Assembly (NCBI GenBank): GCA_963835575.1
Contig: CAWIGG010000003.1
Coordinates: 64,001-128,000 of the forward strand
Origin: an uncultured Spirochaetota bacterium
GTDB lineage: Bacteria > Spirochaetota > Brevinematia > Brevinematales > JAOACQ01
Reading direction: 5' to 3'
DNA length: 64,000 nt
Below, in pieces: positions 4,226 to 62,944 of this stretch. The stretch's first letter is position 1; each line of letters opens with the position of its first letter. Below the pieces are notes generated by a model. The model was not told the DNA's origin, ran no database searches, and saw only the letters and a program-made list of their open reading frames with translations. Both the position numbers and the translations under genes were made by a program.

Positions 4226-4384
4226 ATCCGATGCTTCACACGGATAACGCAGATTTTACGGATTAACACGGATATTTCAGGAAAGGTTTAACGAGGATAG
4301 GAAACGGAAACCGTGAAGCAAAACATTTATAAAAAAATCCGTGAGAATCCGTGTCATCCGCGTAATCCGTGTGATGAATCGGAT
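4226..4384. repeat. Tandem-inverted-repeat element (CACGGAT type)
   Basis: Left arm 4226-4273 atccgatgcttcacacggataacgcagattttacggattaacacggat. Right arm 4337-4384 reverse-complements to atccgattcatcacacggattacgcggatgacacggattctcacggat. Confidence 0.9.
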
Positions 4385-5315: not shown

Positions 5316-5392
5316 TAATATATTGAATATGGTAAAAGAGATAAAGAATAATTTGCAAACATATGTTTCGATTGGTTGGCTGCGAGAAAATC

Positions 5393-5555
5393 ACCACGAA
5401 GGCCACGAAGTACACGAAGTTTTTTACTAATAATAATTAATTTTTATAAATACGATTAGAAAAATTAATTATTAAAAACATTTAAAAAGGAGTGTTAACT
5501 CAAAATTTAAAAATATTTCAATTTATTTCTTCGTGTTCTTCGTGCACTTCGTGGT
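5393..5555. repeat. Tandem-inverted-repeat element (CACGAAG 9-mer type)
   Basis: Left accacgaaggccacgaagtacacgaag (5393-5419); right cttcgtgttcttcgtgcacttcgtggt (5529-5555); AT-rich spacer. Confidence 0.9.
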
Positions 5556-5615
5556 TTAAAACATAGCCTGAAAGGCAAATCCATCGATACAAATAGTTCC
5601 AAATCATAAGATTGA

Positions 5616-8757
<3,142 letters not shown>

Positions 8758-25354: not shown

Positions 25355-25481
25355 GCCACAGAATTTCACAGAAAACCACGGAATCATTTTATCATTTTTT
25401 TGTGCAGAAACAAAGCTTCCACTTTTAAAAGCTCATAATGTTAATTTTTCGTTTCTGTGTTCTTCAGTGAAGTTCTGTGGC
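25355..25481. repeat. Tandem-inverted-repeat element (CACAGAA 10-mer type)
   Basis: Left gccacagaatttcacagaaaaccacggaa (25355-25383); right ttctgtgttcttcagtgaagttctgtggc (25453-25481). Confidence 0.9.
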
Positions 25482-37333: not shown

Positions 37334-37404
37334 AACCACAGATTTCACTGATTTCACTGATTTTTTCAAAATTATAATCTGTGTCATCTGTGTAATCTGT
37401 GGTT
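37334..37404. repeat. Tandem-inverted-repeat element (CACAGAT 9-mer type), nearly empty
   Basis: aaccacagatttcactgatttcactgatt / aatctgtgtcatctgtgtaatctgtggtt with a 13-bp spacer. Confidence 0.92.
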
Positions 37405-45291: not shown

Positions 45292-48200
45292 TTGAAAATG
45301 CATTTAAACCGCCGGCGGAAGGCGCTTTTCAAGGAACACACCGGGCCGGACCGTCTTACCGGGGAAAATTCCCTGGAATATCCTTTACTCGCCGACCTGT
45401 TCAGTATTGAACAGCTGGAAAAACATGGGGAGGCCATTGCCCGGCTGCATGAACTGGATTTCCGGGCAGGTAAGGATAAACTCCTGGGCAGGCTTACTGA
45501 AAATGAAAAAATCCTGAGTGAAATATATGAATTTTTAAGTACCGGAGAAGAGGCAAAACAGAGCCTGTCCACGGCCGGGGTCTGGCTCCTGGATAATTTC
45601 TTCCTGATTGAGGAACAAATCCAGATAGCGCGGAAACACCTGCCGAAAAGATACAGTCAGGAACTTCCCCGTCTCCGTTCCGGCCCATCGGCGGGCCTGC
45701 CGCGTGTTTATGATATTGTCCGCGAACTGATCTCTCATGTGGACGGTAAAGTTGATAAAGGGAATCTCGGCAGCATTACCGCTTCATATCAAAGGATAAC
45801 ACCCTTGAAATTGGGCGAATTATGGGCCATCCCCATTATGCTGCGCCTGGCCCTGATCGAAAATTTACGCCGGGTCGCTATGCGCGTCGCCGCGGGTATG
45901 AGCGACCGTAATCTGGCCGGTATCTGGGCGGACCGGCTGCTCAAAACAGCCGGGAATGACCCGAAAAATATTATCCTCGACATGGCGGATATGGTCAGGG
46001 CCGAACTCCCCATGACCAGCACTTTTGTGGCGGAATTAGTCAGGAGGCTGCAGAGCCGGAACCCGGCCCTTGTCCTGCCCCTTACCTGGATCGAACAGCG
46101 TCTTATAGAAAAAGGCCAGACGATCGAACGGCTGGTACAGCTGGACAGCCAGCATCAAGCGACCAGCCAGATCTCCATCTCGAACAGCATCAACAGTCTC
46201 AGGTTCCTGACAGCGATCAACTGGAAAAATTTTGTGGAAGCCATGAGCCGTGTGGAACAGGTTCTCCGCGGCGATCCCGCGGGTGTTTATCAAAAAATGG
46301 ATTTTACTACCCGGGATAATTACAGGCATGTTATCGAGAAGATCGCGAAGCAAAGCCGGCTGCCTGAGGACAGCGTAGCGCTTCAGGCGGTTAAACTCTC
46401 GTCGCAAAACAAGGAAAAAACAGATAAAACGGCCCACATCGGCTATTACCTGATCGGCCGGGGACGCAACCTGCTGGAACAGGCCGTTAAGATGCGGCTT
46501 ACTTTCAGGGATAAGCTGTCCGGAACCGGCAGGAAAGCGCCGTTATTCTTTTATCTGGGCTCCATCCTACTTGTTACGGCCGGCCTGACATTATCATCGC
46601 TCCGGATAATGCATCCCCCAGGTCCGGGGATAAAGCCCTGGCTGGCTTTCCTTCTTCTCCTCGGATTCAGCCAGCTGTCTATCGCGCTTGTAAACTGGGT
46701 GTCAAGCATTCTGGTTAAACCCGTGCTTCTGCCCAGAATGGATTTTTCCAAGGGAGTCCCGCAGGAATCATGCACGCTGATTACCGTACCATCCATACTT
46801 TCCAGCGCGTTTGATATCGGCGAGCTCATGAATAAAATTGAAACATGCTGCCTGGCCAACAGGGCCGATAATCTTTACTTCAGCCTTTTAACCGATTTCA
46901 AGGACGCGCCGGAAGAATCCATGCCTGATGACGGACCGCTTTTCAAGCTGGCCAGGGAAGGCATTAAACAGCTGAATAATAAATACGGCCGTAACGGCCG
47001 CGGGCCGTTCTATCTTTTTCATCGTTCCAGGCTGTGGAACCCGGGGGAAAAAGTCTGGATGGGATATGAGCGGAAACGGGGGAAACTTGAAGCCCTTAAT
47101 AAAGCCCTGCGGTCCGGTAAAACACCGGAGCTCCTCATCGAAGGCGACCCCTCGGTTTTGCCTCAGGTTAAATATGTCATAACTCTCGATACGGATACCC
47201 AGCTGCCCCGCGATGCGGCAAGACTGCTGATTGAAACCATGGCGCACCCGCTCAACGTTCCCGTCTATGATCCTGCTAAAAAGAGGGTCGTGTCGGGATA
47301 TACGATACTCCAGCCCAGGGTTGTCTCAAGCCTGCCGGCGGCGCGCAAGTCCTGGTATTCGAGAATCTTTGGAAGCGAAACAGGGATTGACCCTTATACG
47401 CGGGCGGTATCGGACGTTTACCAGGATATTTTCGGAGAAGGCTCATTCATCGGCAAGGGAATTTATGACGTGGATATGTTCATCCGGTCCCTGGCTGATC
47501 GTCTGCCTGAGAACCGGATTTTGAGCCATGATCTCCTGGAGAGCACATACGGCAGGTCGGGCATGATCAGCGACGTCCAGCTGATCGACGAGTTCCCGGA
47601 AAGCTACAGCGAGGATATTTCCAGGCGCCGCCGCTGGATCAGGGGCGATTGGCAGATCGCCGCATGGTTACTGCCCCGCGTGCCCGGGTATAAACAGAAA
47701 CCGGAGAAAAATCCCATCTCTTTATTATCGTGGTGGAAGATCTTTGATAATCTCCGGAGGAGCCTTGTCCCGGCAGGATTAATGCTTTTGATCGTTCTCA
47801 GCTGGATGTTCCTGCAGCCTTCATGGCTGGGGTTTAGTATTGCTGCGGGGATTATTTTTATTCCCATGCTGCCCGGTGTTTTTAAGCAGGCGTTCCGTAT
47901 TCCCGTTAAGTTCCCATTAACCCTGCATATGCTCTCGGTGGCCGGATACCTGGGACGCCATCTTTTCCAGGCTGTCTTTTTGTTCGCGGTCCTTCCTTAT
48001 GAGGCTTTTTTTAATCTTATCGCAATCATTATAACCTGCTCCAGGATGCTCTTTTCCAGGCGTAAACTTCTCGAATGGACCCCGTCCGGGGAAGCCAGGC
48101 ATAAACCATGCAGAAACTTGCCGGGCTATTACCGGCTGATGGCTATTGTTCCCCTGCTCATACTTGTCTTCGGAACATTTCTATTCACACAATGGCAGGA

Positions 48201-51200
48201 ATGGATATTAAATATATTGGGACTGACGCTATTCTGGTTTTTTTCTCCCTTTTTCGCGTGGTGGATCAGCAGGCCGCTGGTTAAGCGCAGTATCAGCCTG
48301 TCCCCAAAGCAGATTACATTCCTGAGGAAAATCTGCCGTAAAACCTGGAGATTTTTTGAAACCTTTGCGGGGCCTGAAGACAACTGGCTCCCGGCGGATA
48401 ATTACCAGGAAGAACCGAAAGAAGCATCTGCGCACCGGACCTCGCCCACGAATATCGGGCTGATGCTCCTTTCGAACCTGGGCGCTTATGATCTCGGATA
48501 CCAGTCCGCGGGGCAATTGATCGACAGGACCAGAAAATCATTCAGGACAATGGAAGGACTGGCCCGGTTCCATGGGCATTTCTTTAACTGGTATGATACC
48601 AGGACCCTGCAGCCCCTGCCGCCGGAGTATGTTTCAACAGTGGACAGCGGCAACCTGGCAGGCTATCTTTTGACCCTCAGACCCGGCCTTCTTGAGCTCA
48701 AGGACCGTAAAATCTTCCAACAGCAATTATATAGCGGCCTGATCGATGCGCTCTCTGTTATCAATGATCTGCTTATTCCTCCGCCGGATAAAATAACCAT
48801 GATACTGAAAAAAAAGTCCGCATTGGATAAACGGCTGAGTCAGCTTATAGAAACCATAACGGATATGCGGCTTCAGACCGGAGGACTCGGCAAGGCTCTG
48901 GAAGATTTAAACAGAATTGTCATTGAGGTCCGGGAACTGCGAATCCTGGCGGGTGAAAAGCCGGACCCGGAAGCGGATTGGTGGTTCCAGGCGCTGGAAG
49001 ATCAATGCGCCGCGGAACAGGAAGAACTGATCTTTCTGGCGCCCTGGCTTGTTTCTGAAGGACCGGGGAACACGATAAACAAAAAAATAATACAGGACCT
49101 GGATAATAACCGCACACTCTCTCAACTTGCCGGTTTGAATGAATTATCGGCTTCTATTGAAGCCGGGATAAAAAAATCAGGCCCGTCTTCAGAGGAAAAG
49201 CGGGAACCGGACCTGGAATTTTATGACAAACTTCTTTACAAGGTCAGACAGGGAAGCCATCGGGCCCAGGCGCGTATCAAACAGCTGGAACAGATGGCCC
49301 TGCAATGCCGGGACCTCTCAGACCAGGATTATGATTTCCTGTACGATGCTTCCCGCAATCTCCTCAGCATCGGATATGATGTGTCCAAACACCGGAATGA
49401 CGAAAGTTTCTATGATCTGCTCGCTTCCGAAGCCCGGTTATGCAGTTTTATCGGGATCGCCCGGGGCAAACTGCCCCTGGAACACTGGTTTTCCCTGGGC
49501 CGTCTGGTTACTATCTGGAAAGGCAGAACAATCCTGCTCTCCTGGGGCGGCTCCATGTTCGAATACCTTATGCCGCGGCTGGTGATGCCGGACTATGACA
49601 ATACCCTGCTCGGCCAATCCTGTCAAGCGGTCGTGGAAAGACAGATCGCTTACGGGCGGAAAAAAGGTGTGCCATGGGGTATTTCAGAATCTGCCGAAGC
49701 CATGACAGACGCCGGCCTGAATTATCAATACAGGTCTTTCGGAGTACCGGACATCGGATTTAAACGGGGACTATCCAATGACCTGGTGATCGCGCCCTAT
49801 GCTTCCGTCCTGGCGATGATGCTTAACCCCGGCGAGGCATGTGTGAATTTACAGAAACTTTCAGAGCGCGGTTTCGAAGGAAGATATGGATTTTATGAGG
49901 CAATCGATTTTACGCCCGGCCGTCTGCCTCATGATCAATCCGAAGTCCTGATCCGTTCGTTCATGGCCCATCATCAGGGTATGAGCTTCATTTCCTTAGT
50001 TAATTATTTTACAAATGATCTGATGATAAACCGGTTTACATCCGATCCCCTCTTTCAGACAACGGTCCTTCTCCTTCAGGAACGGGTACCTAAAGCCACC
50101 CCGTTTCAAATGCTGCCTTCGGTCCTTTCAAGGACAAGGGACATGCCGGAGAAGCAGGAAGATGCCCTGCGGGTGTTTAACACGGCCGGGACGCCTTTCC
50201 CGGAAGTTCACCTGCTCTCCAACGGCCGGTATCATGTGATGGTGACCAATGCCGGGGGAGGGTACAGCCGGTGGCGGGATATTGCCGTCACCCGCTGGAG
50301 CGAAGACGCTACCAGGGACAATTTCGGAACATTTATCTACATCAATGATATTTCCAGCGGCAGCCTCTGGTCAGCCGCTTTCCAGCCGACGCTCGCCGAG
50401 CCCAAGAATTATGAGGCGCTGTTTCCCCAGGCGCGGGCTGAGTTCCGGCGCAGGGACCAGGGCCTTGATACCTATACGGAGATTGCCGTATCACCCGAAG
50501 ACGATATCGAGCACAGGCGGATCAGCCTGAGCAATTATACAGTCAAGACACGGACCATCGAGATTACCAGTTATGCCGAAGTGGTCCTGATCAAACCTGA
50601 CGATGAAACAGCTCATCCCGCGTTCTCCAATCTGTTCATGCAAACCGGGATCATCCGGGAACACAAGGCAATTTTATGCTCCCGGCGGCCGCGATCTCCG
50701 CATGAAAAAAACCCATGGATGTTCCATCTCCTCGCTGTAAATGAAAATGAACAATTTGAAGTCTCCTATGAAACCGACCGCTTGAAGTTCATCGGCCGCG
50801 GCCGGGCCGCCTGCAACCCGCTTGCAATGGAAGAGGCAGGGCCTCTTTCCGGAACAGAGGGACCGGTTTTGGACCCAGCTGTCTCCATCCGCTGCAGGCT
50901 GACCCTGAAACCCGGCGATACGGTCACTGTCGGGTTTATTTCGGGTATGGCGGAGACACAGCAGGAAGCCATGACTTTGATTGAAAAATATCAGGACAGG
51001 CGTCTGGCGGACAGGGTTTTTGACATGGCGCTGATCCATGGAAAGGTCCTGCTTCAGCAGCTTAATGCCTCGGAATCCGACGCTCAAGTTTACGGCCGCC
51101 TGGCCAGCTCCATACTGTATTCGAACCTCAACCGCAGGGCCAATCCGGCCATCCTGATGAAAAACAAAAAGGGACAGTCCGGCTTATGGGCTTACAGCAT

Positions 51201-54052: not shown

Positions 54053-54315
54053 GACCCCAATTCAGCAGGATTAACAGGATTGATCAGGATAGATTCGGCA
54101 AGCTCACTACAAGTTTGCAGGATTGGAATTAGCCACAGAATTTCACAGAAAAACACTGCTTTTATGCTATTTGTTTTAAAGGTTTATATTTTTTTAGTGT
54201 TTTAATTCTGTGAACTTCTGTGTTTTTCTGTGGCAGACCTCGCGTTTTTCCTAAAATTCCATAAAAATATCATGAAAATCCTTCAAAATCATGAAAATCC
54301 TGTTCTATTGGGGTC
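54053..54315. repeat. Nested tandem-inverted-repeat elements (CAGGAT type outside, CACAGAA type 54132-54234 inside, REP in the left arm)
   Basis: gaccccaat..caggattaacaggattgatcaggat / atcatgaaaatcc...aatcctgttctattggggtc; inner gccacagaatttcacagaa / ttctgtgaacttctgtgtttttctgtggc. Confidence 0.9.
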
Positions 54316-55588: not shown

Positions 55589-55779
55589 GCCCCAATTTGG
55601 CAGGATCAACAGGATCAAACAGGTCCCCGACTTGATCGGGGACAGGATTTGCGGAATAAAGGATTGAGCCACAGAACTTCACAGATTAGCACTGAATATT
55701 TCATGAAAAAGCAAAGGCTTTGTAAAGGTTAACATTTTTTAATGATTTATTTCCGTGTAATTCTGTGCAATTCCGTGGC
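55589..55779. repeat. Second copy of the CAGGAT-arm plus CACAGAA element composite
   Basis: gccccaatttggcaggatcaacaggatcaaacagg[tccccgacttgatcgggg]acaggatt, then gccacagaac... (55668) / ttccgtgtaattctgtgcaattccgtggc (55751-55779). Confidence 0.88.
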
Positions 55780-58060: not shown

Positions 58061-60934
58061 ATGAGAATCCGTTTGATAATTCTTTTCATATTATTTCAAT
58101 CTGCCATCATGTATTCCATGAATTCAGACGCCCAGAGGTATTTCAATTCGGGAAAGGCCTCATTCAACGACGGGGCTTACTCAATGGCGATCACCCTTTT
58201 TCAGAAAGCGGTGATGAGCGACCCTGAAGGCGAGCTCGCCGACGACGCTTCCTATTATATAGGGCTCTGTTATTATCAGGAAGGCGAATATGAACAGGCC
58301 ATCCAGACCTTCCTGAAATTTTTAAATGATTACACCGATTCGCTTTTTAAGGAAAAATCGACATTCATCATAGGCAATTCTTATTTTAAACTCAAAAGCT
58401 ATGAAAAGGCCGTGCAGAAACTCAGGCTTTTTATTAAATCCTATCCGGACTCCAGGCTCAATCCGAACGCGCATTACCTGATCGCCTACAGCCTTCTTTT
58501 AACCGGCAAGTTTGATGAGGCTGTCGATGAATACAGCCTGATCGTGAAATCCTATCCTTCTTCGGATTACACGGAGGAAAGCCTGATGCGTCTGGGCGAG
58601 GCTTATTTTTATGATAAGGACATCAATAAGGCAGTCAGCACATTAAAGAATTTCCCGCAGAAATACCCTTCTTCCCCATTCAGGGACGAAGCCGATTTCT
58701 TTCTGGCAAGAAGCCTTTATCAGAATAATGATATGGAAAACGCCGCCGTTATTTTTGCCAGGCTTTCAGCCGCGACAAATTTCAGCTTCAGGCCTGATGC
58801 CCTGTATTATGCTTCCATGATCTTTATCAAACAGGATAATTTTAATGAATCGGTAAAGTACCTGTCCGCGCTCGCCCAGATCGAAAATAGCGATTATCAT
58901 GACGAGGCGCTCTATAAGCTGGGCCTGCTCTATAAATTACAGGAAGATTATCCTTCAGCCATTAAATATTTCCTCCAGCTTACATCCGGCAATAAAAACC
59001 CGGAATACATTCAAAAAGGATACCTGGAGCTGGCATCCTGTTATATCATCCAGGAAAATTACGCGGATGCCATTAAGGTTTATGAAAAAATAGCCGCACT
59101 GGGAGGGGAAAATACCGCCCTGTCGCTTTCAAAAATGGCGGAACTGAAATTTACAAAAAAGGAATATGACGGGGCCATTGACGATTTCACAAAGCTTCAG
59201 AAACAATTCCCCGACACGGAATACGGTAAAACAGCGCTGTACTGGACCGGAAGGTGTTACCTTGAAGAAAGCAGGTATAAAGATGCCATAACTTTCTTTG
59301 AAAATTATATCCAAAGCGAGCCGCTTTCAGAGAAAAGCGATGAGATCAATCTTTTCATCGGTAATGCTTATGCCGGGATGGGAGATTATGACACGGCGCT
59401 GACCGCTTATGAAAAAGTCCTGAAAAAGCCCGATTCGCCCCAGGCAGACGAAACTCTTAACGCCGAAGCCTGGGTTTATGTAAAAAAGGATGAATACAGC
59501 CGCGCGGCCGATTTATATAAAAAGTTGATCAATACTTATCCCAAAAGCCCTCTGGTCCCTCTCGCCTATTACAGCCTGGGCATTATTAAGTATAATCTCA
59601 AGGATTACGGCCCGGCCATGGAGTATTTTAAAAAAGTGACCGCTGATTATAAAAATTCCTCCTACACAGGAGATGCTTCATTAAAGATCGGCTGGATTTA
59701 TTATAAGCAGGAAAATTTTGAGAATCTGGCAGACTATCTTTCGGCTATAGAAATTAATTCTTTTACGGCCGAACAGAAAGCGGAAGTTTTCAATCTGCTG
59801 GGATGGGCAAAATTCCGGCTGAAATTTTACAACGAGGCGGCCGGCTGCTTCAAAAATTCAATGGACCTGACGCATGATAAAACTAAAATCCTGGAAAATC
59901 AGCTTTATATCGCCAAATCCTATTATAATATGGAAGATTACACCAATTCAATCCAGAGCTATAGAAAATACATCGAAAAAGCGAACGCGTTCGGCATGAA
60001 GGATGATATACCCGCGGCCCTTTCCGATATGGCCTGGTGCTATATTAAAACCGGAGACAATCAAAATGCGGCTGATATCTTTCAGAATTTAATAAAAGCC
60101 TATCCGAAAAGCCCCTATACATCGGAAGCGTTGTTCAAACTCGCGGAATATTACTATAACCAGTCCGATTTTAAAAAAGCGATAGAAAACTATGAAAAAA
60201 TCATCTCTTTATCCAGAGAAGGGGATTTTTCCTCCTCATCCCTCTATTGGATGGCATGGTCTTATTATAATCTGAGCGATAAAATCAACGCGGTAAAAAT
60301 TTTCGAACAATATATTACTCAGTTCCCGAAAGGCGATTATGCTTCGGACTCACTGCTGCGGGCCGCCAATATATACTACGACCTCAATAATTATGACAAG
60401 GCGAAAATTTACTACCAGAAACTCCTGTCCCAGTTCCCGGATTCGCCGGACGCCGAAAAAGCCGGGATCCAGCTTTCGGAAATCAAGCTGAAGGTTGAAA
60501 GCGGCGGCAATGAGGAAAAACTTTACCAGATGCTCATCGAAAAGAGCAAAACACCGCAGGCCAAGGCATCGGCAATGTACAAACTGGCCATGGTCTATAA
60601 AAGGAACGGCAAAACCGGCGACGCGAACAAACTCTTCAATGATATTATCAAGATATCGACGGATGATGAAGCCGCGCTCGCCACATATGAGCTGGCCGAG
60701 GATAATTCCGATAAAGGCAGCTATGAAGAGGCCATCAAGCAGTATGGAAGCATTTTTTATGTCTATAAATACGCCGATATATACCCTCAAAGCCTCTATG
60801 GAATTTCCTACTGCTATTATAAGACCGGAAATAACGATGCCGCAAATCAATATCTGAAGAAGATTATTGAAAAATATCCGGCCACTCCCTGGGCTGATAA
60901 AGCGAAAGATTTACTGAAAGAAATGAGTAAATAA
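58061..60934 (+). CDS. Exported long TPR-repeat protein (CpoB/BamD-like repeats)
   Basis: Signal peptide; more than 20 TPR-like units with recurring YP.S...A.Y..G pattern. Confidence 0.88.
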   Translation: MRIRLIILFILFQSAIMYSMNSDAQRYFNSGKASFNDGAYSMAITLFQKAVMSDPEGELADDASYYIGLCYYQEGEYEQAIQTFLKFLNDYTDSLFKEKSTFIIGNSYFKLKSYEKAVQKLRLFIKSYPDSRLNPNAHYLIAYSLLLTGKFDEAVDEYSLIVKSYPSSDYTEESLMRLGEAYFYDKDINKAVSTLKNFPQKYPSSPFRDEADFFLARSLYQNNDMENAAVIFARLSAATNFSFRPDALYYASMIFIKQDNFNESVKYLSALAQIENSDYHDEALYKLGLLYKLQEDYPSAIKYFLQLTSGNKNPEYIQKGYLELASCYIIQENYADAIKVYEKIAALGGENTALSLSKMAELKFTKKEYDGAIDDFTKLQKQFPDTEYGKTALYWTGRCYLEESRYKDAITFFENYIQSEPLSEKSDEINLFIGNAYAGMGDYDTALTAYEKVLKKPDSPQADETLNAEAWVYVKKDEYSRAADLYKKLINTYPKSPLVPLAYYSLGIIKYNLKDYGPAMEYFKKVTADYKNSSYTGDASLKIGWIYYKQENFENLADYLSAIEINSFTAEQKAEVFNLLGWAKFRLKFYNEAAGCFKNSMDLTHDKTKILENQLYIAKSYYNMEDYTNSIQSYRKYIEKANAFGMKDDIPAALSDMAWCYIKTGDNQNAADIFQNLIKAYPKSPYTSEALFKLAEYYYNQSDFKKAIENYEKIISLSREGDFSSSSLYWMAWSYYNLSDKINAVKIFEQYITQFPKGDYASDSLLRAANIYYDLNNYDKAKIYYQKLLSQFPDSPDAEKAGIQLSEIKLKVESGGNEEKLYQMLIEKSKTPQAKASAMYKLAMVYKRNGKTGDANKLFNDIIKISTDDEAALATYELAEDNSDKGSYEEAIKQYGSIFYVYKYADIYPQSLYGISYCYYKTGNNDAANQYLKKIIEKYPATPWADKAKDLLKEMSK

Positions 60935-61030
60935 AGATATACCGGCGTTTTATGCAAATACTACCAACTGTAACCCTATTTTCCGGACTTTTTTTTAAAG
61001 AGTCATTCTAATATCAATCTTATGAGTTGT

Positions 61031-61316
61031 AACCACAGACGCCGTGGTGAGCTTGTCGAACCATTACACTGATTTCACAGATATTTCATATAAAATCCAT
61101 ATGGAATTATAGCAGAAATAAAATATTTCTGTTTTTTAATACTAAAAAAAACTAATTGGAAATGGCTTGCCGCGCCAATAATTTAATATGTTAGCGGATC
61201 GTTCTTCGTTTCTATTTCCATATTCATAATTATAATATGATTTCACTGGCTTGCAGAGCGCCTCCCGTTTCTATTCTTTGAAATATTAATCTGTGTATTC
61301 TGTGAAATCTGTGGTT
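61031..61316. repeat. Tandem-inverted-repeat element (CACAGAT type) with a REP in the left arm and a gene relic inside
   Basis: aaccacaga[cgccgtggtgagcttgtcgaacca]ttacactgatttcacagat / atctgtgtattctgtgaaatctgtggtt (61289-61316). Confidence 0.9.
61168..61227 (-). pseudogene. N-terminal relic of a GxxExxY (PD-(D/E)XK-type) protein gene
   Basis: Minus strand reads MNMEIETKNDPLTY*IIGAA, matching the typical GxxExxY start D.LTY.IIGAA..VH. Confidence 0.6.
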
Positions 61317-61474
61317 CCGCTCCGTCGTTCCTACTCTATCAAACAGTTAAACATAGCTATGTTAATAAAAGAATTTTTACTACGAATTATTGATAATTTT
61401 TTTTTTTGGTATATGATTATTAAAGCCTCGTCATGAGGAATAATAAAATATTACCTTTCAACCAGGAGTGATAT

Positions 61475-62944
61475 ATGGGCAAACTCTATGATTCACTGCC
61501 GGACAGTTTTATGAAGAAAGTCCTCAAGGATGAGGACCCGGAAGTAGTAGAACATTTGCTCACAGTCAAAGCGCAATTCGAAAAAGAAACCGATAAAGAC
61601 AGCAAAGTGGCCTTTAAAGAAAGGCTCACAACCTCTTTCTGGAATCTCTATACAAAAATCGGCCAGAGGCTGACTGACAAATCGCCCAAGGAAAAAAGGC
61701 TCTTTCTGCGTTTCGGCCTTCTTGATCTTAAATATCTTTCAACCGAAGAGCAGCAGCTTATCCTATCGCAGCCTTTTGAAGAGAAAGACGCGGAGAGCAC
61801 CATTTTTTATGTCGATGAATGGATCCTGGCCATATTAAAAGGCCAGATCAAACCGAGCGTCACTGACGAGGCGTCATTCAAGAAGTCCGCTAAAAATATG
61901 GATGCCGCCCAGCAGGTTAAATTCGAAAGAACGGCCGGACTGCTTGAGGCGAATAAAAAAAGCTATTTTAACGCCGTCGAGAGGCGTAAGGTTCAGGAAG
62001 ACGCCCTGCTTTCTCTTTCCAGCATGGTCTGCATGCATCAGGTCGATCCCCTTTTTAATACTTCTGAAACTTATTCCGAAGAACAGCTGAAAAAGATGGA
62101 TGAAATCGGCGATATTCTAAGAGACCTGAAAAAGATTGACAGGGAAATGAATGTCGCGAAAAAATCCTATTACGATAGTTTTGAAGATCAGAAAGAACTG
62201 GAAGCCCAGATCAGCGAAAGTAAAGGCAGGGAAACCAATACGGTCTACGCGGTGGATTCCCATACCGCCGAAAGCGAAATCGGCGCTCTCCGCCAGATGA
62301 CAAAAATGTGTATCGGCAGGCAGGGGAACCATTTTCCCATCCTTCTGGGCGCCTTTATACCCAGGGACACTCTGGAATATAATTTCAAAGGCAACGCCTA
62401 TAGAAGGCTGAAAGAAATCGATACCATGGATTATTCCATATTCGAAAGGACTTTCCGCCAGCAGACTCACCGCATACCGCCTTACATCATATTAACTCCG
62501 GGATATGGAAATTACGGGATCTGCTGGGAACCTTATGACAAATACAACAAAGCATCCAGTAAGGGGAGAATTGCAGTCCCTATTTTTTCAAAGAATCCCA
62601 AGCTCTCTTTGGTTGTCGCTCTGGGCGACTTCCGCTGGCAGGTCGCAAAAGAGATGGCCGGATACCACTGGATGGATGAAGGTTTGACCGCCAGGTATTA
62701 TACCTATCTGGACACCAATAAAATTAAAGGCGATATCAAGACCCATTTTATCAATGATTACGCCCTCTGGATCATCAAGGAAGGCGAAGGGATCCAGAAA
62801 CTTGATAACCAGGATGTCCGCTATATCTTCTGGCGCTTTGTTCCGTTTCCCGATAAATTAAAGGAAGAACTCTCCAGCCGCGGATTTTATTACAGCGATC
62901 TCTATAAGAAAGAATTAAGCTATAGAATGTCCAAAGGCTATTAA
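61475..62944 (+). CDS. Conserved hypothetical protein with a central coiled coil
   Basis: RBS AGGAG; motifs MCIGRQGNHFPIL, PYIILTPGYG..GICWEP and FINDY.LWI; immediately upstream of recG. Confidence 0.75.
   Translation: MGKLYDSLPDSFMKKVLKDEDPEVVEHLLTVKAQFEKETDKDSKVAFKERLTTSFWNLYTKIGQRLTDKSPKEKRLFLRFGLLDLKYLSTEEQQLILSQPFEEKDAESTIFYVDEWILAILKGQIKPSVTDEASFKKSAKNMDAAQQVKFERTAGLLEANKKSYFNAVERRKVQEDALLSLSSMVCMHQVDPLFNTSETYSEEQLKKMDEIGDILRDLKKIDREMNVAKKSYYDSFEDQKELEAQISESKGRETNTVYAVDSHTAESEIGALRQMTKMCIGRQGNHFPILLGAFIPRDTLEYNFKGNAYRRLKEIDTMDYSIFERTFRQQTHRIPPYIILTPGYGNYGICWEPYDKYNKASSKGRIAVPIFSKNPKLSLVVALGDFRWQVAKEMAGYHWMDEGLTARYYTYLDTNKIKGDIKTHFINDYALWIIKEGEGIQKLDNQDVRYIFWRFVPFPDKLKEELSSRGFYYSDLYKKELSYRMSKGY

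Follow-up and report, generated by a model that had tools for sequence, protein, structure and literature searches.

A broken GxxExxY gene start between CACAGAT arms as a likely transposase-less derivative of an IS91-family element

Introduction

What is the broken start of a gene doing between two inverted repeat arms at a gene junction, and what carried it there? The question is raised by the window, by which we mean the whole stretch of 64,000 nucleotides analysed here; it belongs to G000, a genome of 4.39 Mb that is 94% complete and assembled in 7 contigs. A sequence-only reading of the window had claimed that the peptide MNMEIETKNDPLTY*IIGAA is encoded on the minus strand at 61227-61168 inside inverted arms of a CACAGAT word, that it stems from a GxxExxY (PF13366) gene destroyed by a nonsense mutation and a deletion, and that GxxExxY is the protein tied to such arms.

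In the accessible parts of the literature found, GxxExxY, although a widespread family, is mentioned just in passing, and the available portion of a superfamily review lists the function of PF13366 as 'Unknown' (PMC3424549). Subscription journals and supplements aside, GxxExxY was nowhere found described together with repeat arms or IS91, and the repeat-armed cassettes of this family have so far been without an enzyme able to move them. For IS91, the accessible parts of published accounts describe two ends that differ from each other, subterminal palindromes, insertion that leaves the target unduplicated, and an upstream gene, orf121, that is coupled to the transposase gene and governs termination (PMC13181058, PMC13023784, PMC8894482).

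A dead GxxExxY gene start

The peptide is encoded as claimed, and it does lie inside inverted arms of the CACAGAT word (Table 1). A search for the doublet pattern of the arms gave 3 occurrences in the window and none in 100 shuffles. When the peptide was checked against shuffled controls, it scored 72 to the intact paralogue at C5:385014-384637, with a shuffle maximum of 41 and none of the 10,000 shuffles as high; in a pairwise alignment, the window stub and this paralogue share 90% nucleotide identity over 82 nt, comprising the leader and codons 1-18. These two shuffle tests, on arm doublets and peptide, rule out chance or artefact as the source of stub and arms. The paralogue contains the GxxExxY motif and passes both TIGR04256 (136.5 bits versus a cut-off of 35) and PF13366 (130 bits versus a cut-off of 22). 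The stub peptide is also significantly similar to a stop-bearing full-length copy on C6 (1/10,000 shuffles as high), but not to 6 other GxxExxY frames tested in G000 (772-2660/10,000 shuffles as high); its likeness is thus subfamily-specific. The flanks of intact GxxExxY genes of this subfamily, when checked, were found to carry the same arms. Such arms flank two genes in G000, one intact and the other stop-bearing, as well as 2 genes in the congener G002 and 5 among GTDB loci of other lineages. The descent of the stub from a GxxExxY gene is borne out, and the broken gene start is confirmed as real.

The window copy is a dead pseudogene fragment, which does not reach the GxxExxY motif and is absent among the 10 PF13366 matches in G000, 9 of them over the cut-off. 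By homology, the gene starts at the second ATG (61221), 7 nt after TATAAT as in the intact copy; the leading 'MN' of the peptide is leader and lies outside the protein. The hexamer-to-ATG spacing is alike in the 12 related genes listed, with a degenerate hexamer in some, and we infer a leaderless transcript from this candidate -10 box, although a two-hexamer promoter scan did not list TATAAT at 61229..61234. An Rfam scan of the region gave 2 weak matches, both under the gathering score, a terminator scan found none in the region, and RNA folding of the + strand spacer gave nothing special (z -1.1; 14/100 shuffles). The arm-doublet hairpin, folded as single-stranded DNA, has a z of -3.4 (0/100 shuffles).

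Other parts of the window hold related structures. Another gene-start-like stub, in a more decayed state (weak profile match, E 0.99), lies on the + strand at ~5325-5635 (G000:C3:69330-69635); a nested CACGAAG hairpin accompanies it, as does the oriIS-like end with the highest score in G000. Gene-less arm pairs with related words are present at 4239-4353, 25357-25479, 37334-37404 (a 71-bp CACAGAT pair), 54134-54232 and 55670-55767.

Table 1. Features of the element and its neighbours, in window positions
Feature	Position	Strand	Remark
Whole element, ~365 bp, putative non-autonomous derivative	61000..61364	-	End points approximate; outer flanks common to paralogous and transposase-linked copies
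Perfect 14-bp palindrome, left (terIS-like) end	61350..61363	-	Boundary from L127 versus L138
Left arm, three CACAGA(T/A) words, 9-nt period	61289..61316	-	
~24 nt missing from intact paralogue	61249..61272	-	Pairwise alignment
Inner inverted word CAGTGAAATC, able to pair with left arm	61239..61248	-	Conserved in copies
TATAAT, candidate -10 box, 7 nt before ATG	61229..61234	-	Spacing as in intact and related genes
GxxExxY stub, codons 1-18; private stop at 61185-61183	61168..61221	-	
AT-rich tail common to stub family	61088..61167	-	
Right arm, three words, inverted relative to left arm	61031..61087	+	
24-nt secondary insert, splitting outer word of right arm	61040..61063	+	Separate repeat, 39 copies in G000
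Degenerate oriIS-like right end, 8/15 to ISCR27 core	61001..61017	-	13 nt from arm
Host gene outside element, TPR-repeat, YbgF/BamD-like matches	58061..60934	+	
Conserved host gene outside element, without NCBIfam match	61475..62944	+	

One deletion junction at six loci

In G000, the strict arm pattern gives 68 arms, 48 of which form 24 inward-facing pairs. Two pairs enclose full-length genes, 13 enclose partial remnants (blastn E<0.01 between the arms) and 9 enclose nothing or short weak matches. Six copies (the window, C2:1971673, C2:181285, C2:805888, C5:116821 and C5:48270) continue directly after codon 18 with one and the same AT-rich tail, while a seventh (C2:932359) breaks 4-5 nt from this shared junction. 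Over the 24 nt past codon 18, the six stubs are identical to one another at 14-17 positions, against a maximum mean of 10.8 in shuffles, and match the gene's own continuation at 5-8 positions. Among the six, TAA at codon 13 is found only in the window. Given that the junction is common to six loci and the TAA private to one, the deletion came first and the TAA later. The sequence-only reading had placed both events at the window element; as worded, that local loss is not supported. The stub appears instead to be one of a family rather than a case of one-off decay, and the window site probably never held the full gene. Its statement that similarity is lost after codon 18 is roughly right, but the next ~15 nt are loosely like codons 20-23.

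Pairwise identity among the six copies is 60-77%, and the tree of their 5' parts is star-like, with a single stub clade neither shown nor rejected (p-AU 0.30). Automated junction end points lie within nt 54-74 in 10/15 cases (largest 5-nt cluster, 4/15) and range from nt 55 to 69 for the window's junction class; their spread over nt 54-74 is due to the likeness between the start of the tail and codons 20-23. Exact microhomology at the shared junction is 1-2 nt only, in the same register in all six copies. The tail is absent from the two full-length G000 copies. Its comparison with gene 3' ends gave p<0.05 in 3/28 tests, all against a single G002 gene, its best result against post-transposase spacers was 4/500 in 57 tests, and the best match of its profile is an inverted piece of the gene (E 0.008). 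The stub-to-tail pattern had 0 matches in metagenome contigs. Among the sequencing runs listed, one DNA run contains a small share and no RNA run does; the DNA run yielded 4 short pieces and 0 joints.

An IS91-family transposase behind GxxExxY

At 8/36 metagenome loci, a long transposase reading frame lies directly downstream of GxxExxY; at a ninth, L132, both arms surround GxxExxY and the transposase's last ~57 codons, a C-terminal remnant. The frame begins 0-3 nt past the GxxExxY stop at L130, L135 and L140, and at the other linked loci the distance reaches about 60 nt or there are small interrupting inserts. Pfam gave PF14319 and PF04986 in 3/3 frames tested, which identifies an IS91-family HUH/Y2 transposase. 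The protein is ~410 aa long, has 439 relatives, mostly on 1-5-kb contigs, and is about 32-34% identical to plasmid IS91 proteins; an alignment of 65 homologues shows no variation at the HUH histidines, at either tyrosine or at the zinc cysteines. At L127, L138 and L158, both the GxxExxY gene and the transposase gene are broken up by inserts of ~30-60 nt in several positions.

The IS91 link is confined to the paralogue's GxxExxY subfamily: a transposase or remnant follows GxxExxY at 8/21 loci of at least 60% identity and at 0/25 below 60%, while 4 of the 50 loci, the transposase-linked L158 included, belong to neither class, having at least 60% identity over fewer than 55 aligned residues. Across the 57 loci and the metagenome set, L101 is the one distant locus with a transposase fragment, which lies upstream. 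Furthermore, 14/119 GxxExxY matches share contig size and source with one of 120 transposase matches (offset null 1.8±1.3, maximum 7), coincidences that lend indirect support to a wider co-location of the two genes. At 50 more distant transposase loci (30 + 20), GxxExxY was found at none and bracketing arms only at L202. This locus (G494:C5, locus positions 1035-2161), from another phylum, has both ends and the arms around a decayed transposase without GxxExxY, and it interrupts a tyrosine integrase gene with no duplication and with ~16 nt of the target missing; part of the transposase has given way to a mini arm pair of ~75 nt. At L221 both ends are kept in a copy without genes. The ORF upstream of the ISSbo1 transposase was compared as a candidate GxxExxY relative and is unrelated.

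No transposase was found in G000 (tblastn and family search; repeated elements can drop out of 7-contig assemblies), in its four congeners, or in five GTDB genomes with the closest GxxExxY genes. With no transposase found in G000, the window element would be non-autonomous. A whole autonomous element was not found in viral contigs, in 401 host-phylum genomes (best partial matches 34-42% identity), in two 151-genome phylum samples, or in 132 genomes of another class, which gave only the decayed L202; none of the records retrieved has the two genes and the two ends all intact, and the full layout is pieced from partial loci. One nt past the stop of the intact G000 gene there is a transposase-start-like frame of 16 codons, for which 1-97/5000 peptide shuffles score as high, but a DNA-level test of the same frame gave no significance (609-1451/5000). 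Elsewhere in G000 (C2:~1797500-1799400), duplicated fragments like the IS91-type zinc domain of another lineage flank one long ORF, and each is split by the 24-nt repeat that also sits in the window's right arm.

Element ends outside the arms

L127 and L138 have different flanks but one and the same sequence from AGAAC onward. In the 8 transposase-linked loci used for the end matrices, the left tetranucleotide is GAAC in 6 and GAAT in 2; the left end of IS801 is GAAC, according to the part of the source available (PMC3189936). The matrices were built only from DNA outside the arms, outer-left from these 8 loci and outer-right from 2. In G000, ranks 1-4 of the outer-left matrix are four arm flanks and 6 of the top 25 are arm flanks (chance about 1.2% each), while arm flanks take ranks 2-6 of the outer-right matrix and again 6 of the top 25. 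The right end matches the printed oriIS motifs of ISCR27 and ISCR1 as well as the ISSbo1 end, with 14/15 nt of the ISCR27 oriIS core at L137 and 12/15 at L132. At least 11/15 nt of the ori core are matched by 6/23 G000 right flanks, compared with 1/23 left flanks and 31/5000 controls, and the best ori match lies 12-13 nt from the arm in 12/23 right flanks. Against our main reading, right flanks barely exceed left flanks in mean ori score (8.8 versus 8.4). The bases beyond the ori motif are AT-rich, the canonical GAAC/CAAG target is not seen, and the exact end is not fixed.

The window element has the order ter-like end, arm, gene stub, tail, arm, ori-like end. Its arm-to-ori offset of 13 nt equals that of better-kept copies, its left end reads TAAC where transposase-linked copies begin GAAC, and its left flank, arm included, matches C2:416750 at 83% over 65 nt. 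The degeneracy of its ends counts against our main reading: 56-4752/5000 shuffles scored as high for the outer-left end versus 7 loci, the outer-right end showed no significance by shuffles against transposase-linked loci, and neither is in the top 25 of the G000 matrix scans. In addition, arms of like design bracket other GxxExxY clades without transposase, and the arm pairs of G002 gave no ori match of at least 10/15; hence, the arms may predate the IS91 link.

Insertion sites compared with congeners

The window's gene junction spans 540 nt in G000 versus about 100-120 nt in three congeners, the fourth having a different insert there; arms are present at this junction in 0/4 congeners. The gap at one stub site is 582 nt in G000 and -1 to 39 nt in 4/4 congeners, and at another 381 nt versus 45-81 nt in 4/4. 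A third additional site has 354 nt versus 63 and 73 nt, with another insert in one congener and no synteny in one, and a fourth is non-syntenic in 4/4. Arms were found in congeners at none of the 5 stub sites tested. From these comparisons, the element sites are evidently insertions with lineage-specific occupation. The congeners are too diverged for a comparison of target-site duplication at the G000 sites.

Arm pairs also occur in G002. A convergent gene junction has an arm pair both in G000 (L074, C2:932359) and in G002 (L053), with opposite polarity and different contents. At the G002 loci L041, L042, L046, L048, L052/L049 and L053, CACAGAT arm pairs 0.6-1.3 kb apart enclose frames of 90-274 aa that are unrelated; one of these frames matches a methyltransferase (PF02086).

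The GxxExxY family and its arms

At 46/57 GxxExxY loci, versus 3/30 control genes, the gene is bracketed by an inverted repeat that scores higher than any of 100 shuffles; the loci are kin rather than independent, and the control flanks are often coding. In a tree of 56 of the 57 loci (L067 dropped), the nine-member clade of the paralogue (100/99) spans several phyla and has C(A/G)CnGAT arms in 9/9; the word is also found on five tree rows outside this clade, and arm words broadly track the GxxExxY protein clades. Long tandem arrays of arm units surround GxxExxY genes of other clades at L059, L111, L115 and L117.

An AlphaFold model of the GxxExxY protein (pLDDT 93) has a PD-(D/E)XK fold, and its best Foldseek match is Cas4 SSO0001 (E 8.7e-4, TM 0.58); a wide fold search with the model gave none outstanding (best Z 7.7), and a sequence search of the PDB gave 0 relatives. 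By its modelled fold, GxxExxY is a candidate nuclease. Seven GxxExxY matches are on plasmids, none of them enterobacterial, and from this distribution the protein does not look like a homologue of Orf121. P0264 and P0265 are proteins of 320-329 aa in which GxxExxY is fused to a PF01467 domain; no GxxExxY-transposase fusion was seen among the 3 longer matches examined.

Discussion

Given the ancestry of the stub, the gene order in its relatives, the common outer ends, the junction of six copies and the lineage-specific sites, we consider it rather likely that the window element is a transposase-less, internally deleted derivative of an IS91-family element, which was copied in trans and is now a fossil. 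The full form would run from a terIS-like end through a CACAGAT arm, GxxExxY, the HUH/Y2 transposase gene (usually beginning a few bases past the GxxExxY stop), a spacer and the inverted arm to an oriIS-like end. A single deletion would have removed most of GxxExxY and all of the transposase gene. As judged from IS91 biology, the transposase would nick at ori, displace a single strand and end at ter; since it acts at these two places, any piece with both ends could move in trans, and the short form, with both ends kept, may have been copied in this way to new gene junctions. The transposase would have been lost later and the copies would have decayed, with the TAA arising solely in the window copy. 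Less firmly, GxxExxY, which occupies the position of Orf121 in IS91, may bind or trim the arms and so tune termination or insertion. The proposal that GxxExxY is the protein tied to the arms therefore survives in part: the same arms stand on intact genes, but mobility appears to be best explained by the IS91-family transposase of full-length relatives rather than by GxxExxY.

A reading with the same IS91-type ancestry, which we regard as unlikely, has a full-length element at every site and the middle lost independently at a deletion hotspot, which amounts to the local decay of the sequence-only reading, repeated. The likeness of the tail start to codons 20-23 would provide an imperfect repeat to guide slippage, the copy at C2:932359 breaks close by, other copies keep 35 to 170 nt of the gene, and the divergence of the six copies, whose monophyly is not shown, also fits; however, the six are joined in one register with next to no exact microhomology, and the tail that they share is missing from both full-length G000 copies. 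Slightly less probable again is that the arm-GxxExxY-arm unit is itself selfish, spreading by GxxExxY cutting and host repair or template switching, with the IS91 transposase as a captured passenger. The excess of repeat-bracketed GxxExxY loci (kin loci, against control flanks that are often coding), arm words that follow protein clades, distant IS91 transposases without GxxExxY or bracketing arms, the other frames between G002 arm pairs, and the missing target and mini arm pair of L202, which look like replacement rather than clean insertion, are all in its favour. Nevertheless, this subfamily has ter- and ori-like ends outside the arms, which gene-less G000 copies and L221 still keep, L202 has ends, arms and transposase without GxxExxY, and a lone 125-aa nuclease fold, as modelled, would seem to have no evident strand-transfer part.

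We also considered whether a RAYT/Y1 transposase moves the arms as REP doublets (REPINs), which would make the stub an incidental spacer. Inverted, extragenic, variably spaced doublets fit the description in the accessible part of the source (PMC3337134), and G000 has 3 Y1_Tnp matches; given that an arm doublet lies within 1.5 kb of 0/3 of them, that the spacer is a gene remnant and that the outer ends are IS91-like, this reading is very improbable. REPIN/RAYT systems share with our elements the dispersed extragenic inverted doublets and an HUH enzyme acting in trans, as far as that source goes, but the enzyme here is Y2 (IS91) and not Y1, the copies come from a gene-bearing element, and no RAYT is near the arms.

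Under the preferred reading, that of a deleted IS91-family element, the likeness is to IS91, IS801, IS1294 and ISCR as far as they are described in the parts of the sources available: the full-length relatives have an HUH/Y2 transposase with a zinc domain, unlike ends with an ori downstream of the transposase gene that ends in a TTCCTATAC-like motif, a GAAC left end with an adjacent palindrome, and a gene of ~121-125 aa coupled upstream of the transposase gene, comparable to orf121. They differ in that the upstream gene encodes a GxxExxY PD-(D/E)XK protein, that long 9-nt-periodic inverted arms lie inside both ends, and that the canonical target tetranucleotide is not seen. Miniature IS801 derivatives are likewise short transposase-less IS91-family pieces moved in trans, but in the available text they are right-end fragments from one-ended transposition, whereas the elements here keep both ends and lose the middle (PMC3189936). 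The intact paralogue, which passes both cut-offs, belongs with the GxxExxY/PDDEXK_3 proteins (TIGR04256, PF13366), for which a link to repeat arms or a transposase was not found in print. What is new is a GxxExxY-bearing variant of a known IS91-family element, the window copy being a real pseudogene stub. The locus connects an IS91-family transposase, for which ends are defined, with one GxxExxY subfamily, so that the arms and the nuclease gain a testable job, for which Orf121 is a precedent as a coupled regulator in the same position, and it hints at where dozens of intergenic hairpins in each genome may come from.

In general, GxxExxY proteins might be accessory nucleases of rolling-circle (HUH) transposons that read clade-specific arm words of 9-10 nt, with the many arm cassettes of bacteria, GxxExxY-bearing or gene-less, as the non-autonomous offspring, a tentative idea that we hold to be doubtful. 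If true, parent endonuclease-bearing IS91-type elements would be hidden by assemblies on ~2-kb contigs, some arm cassettes would carry unrelated cargo genes between their arms, and the system would be a prokaryotic counterpart of Helentrons. Helentrons/DINE-1 are, in the accessible part of the source, endonuclease-encoding rolling-circle transposons with abundant non-autonomous copies, but they are eukaryotic, and the likeness is no more than an analogy (PMC4067079).

Secondary insertions in the arms

The 24-nt repeat of the window's right arm and its copies at 38 other G000 sites sit inside several different arm words, 7 of the 39 coming after a CACAGA-type word. A 126-nt insert occurs at G000:C2:~181555-181680 and C5:~48140-48270, in two different stub elements, where it lies in the right arm of one and in the left arm of the other. 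Given that its two copies are nearly identical (125/126) and that it is nested in the 24-nt repeat both times, a recent targeted insertion is suggested.
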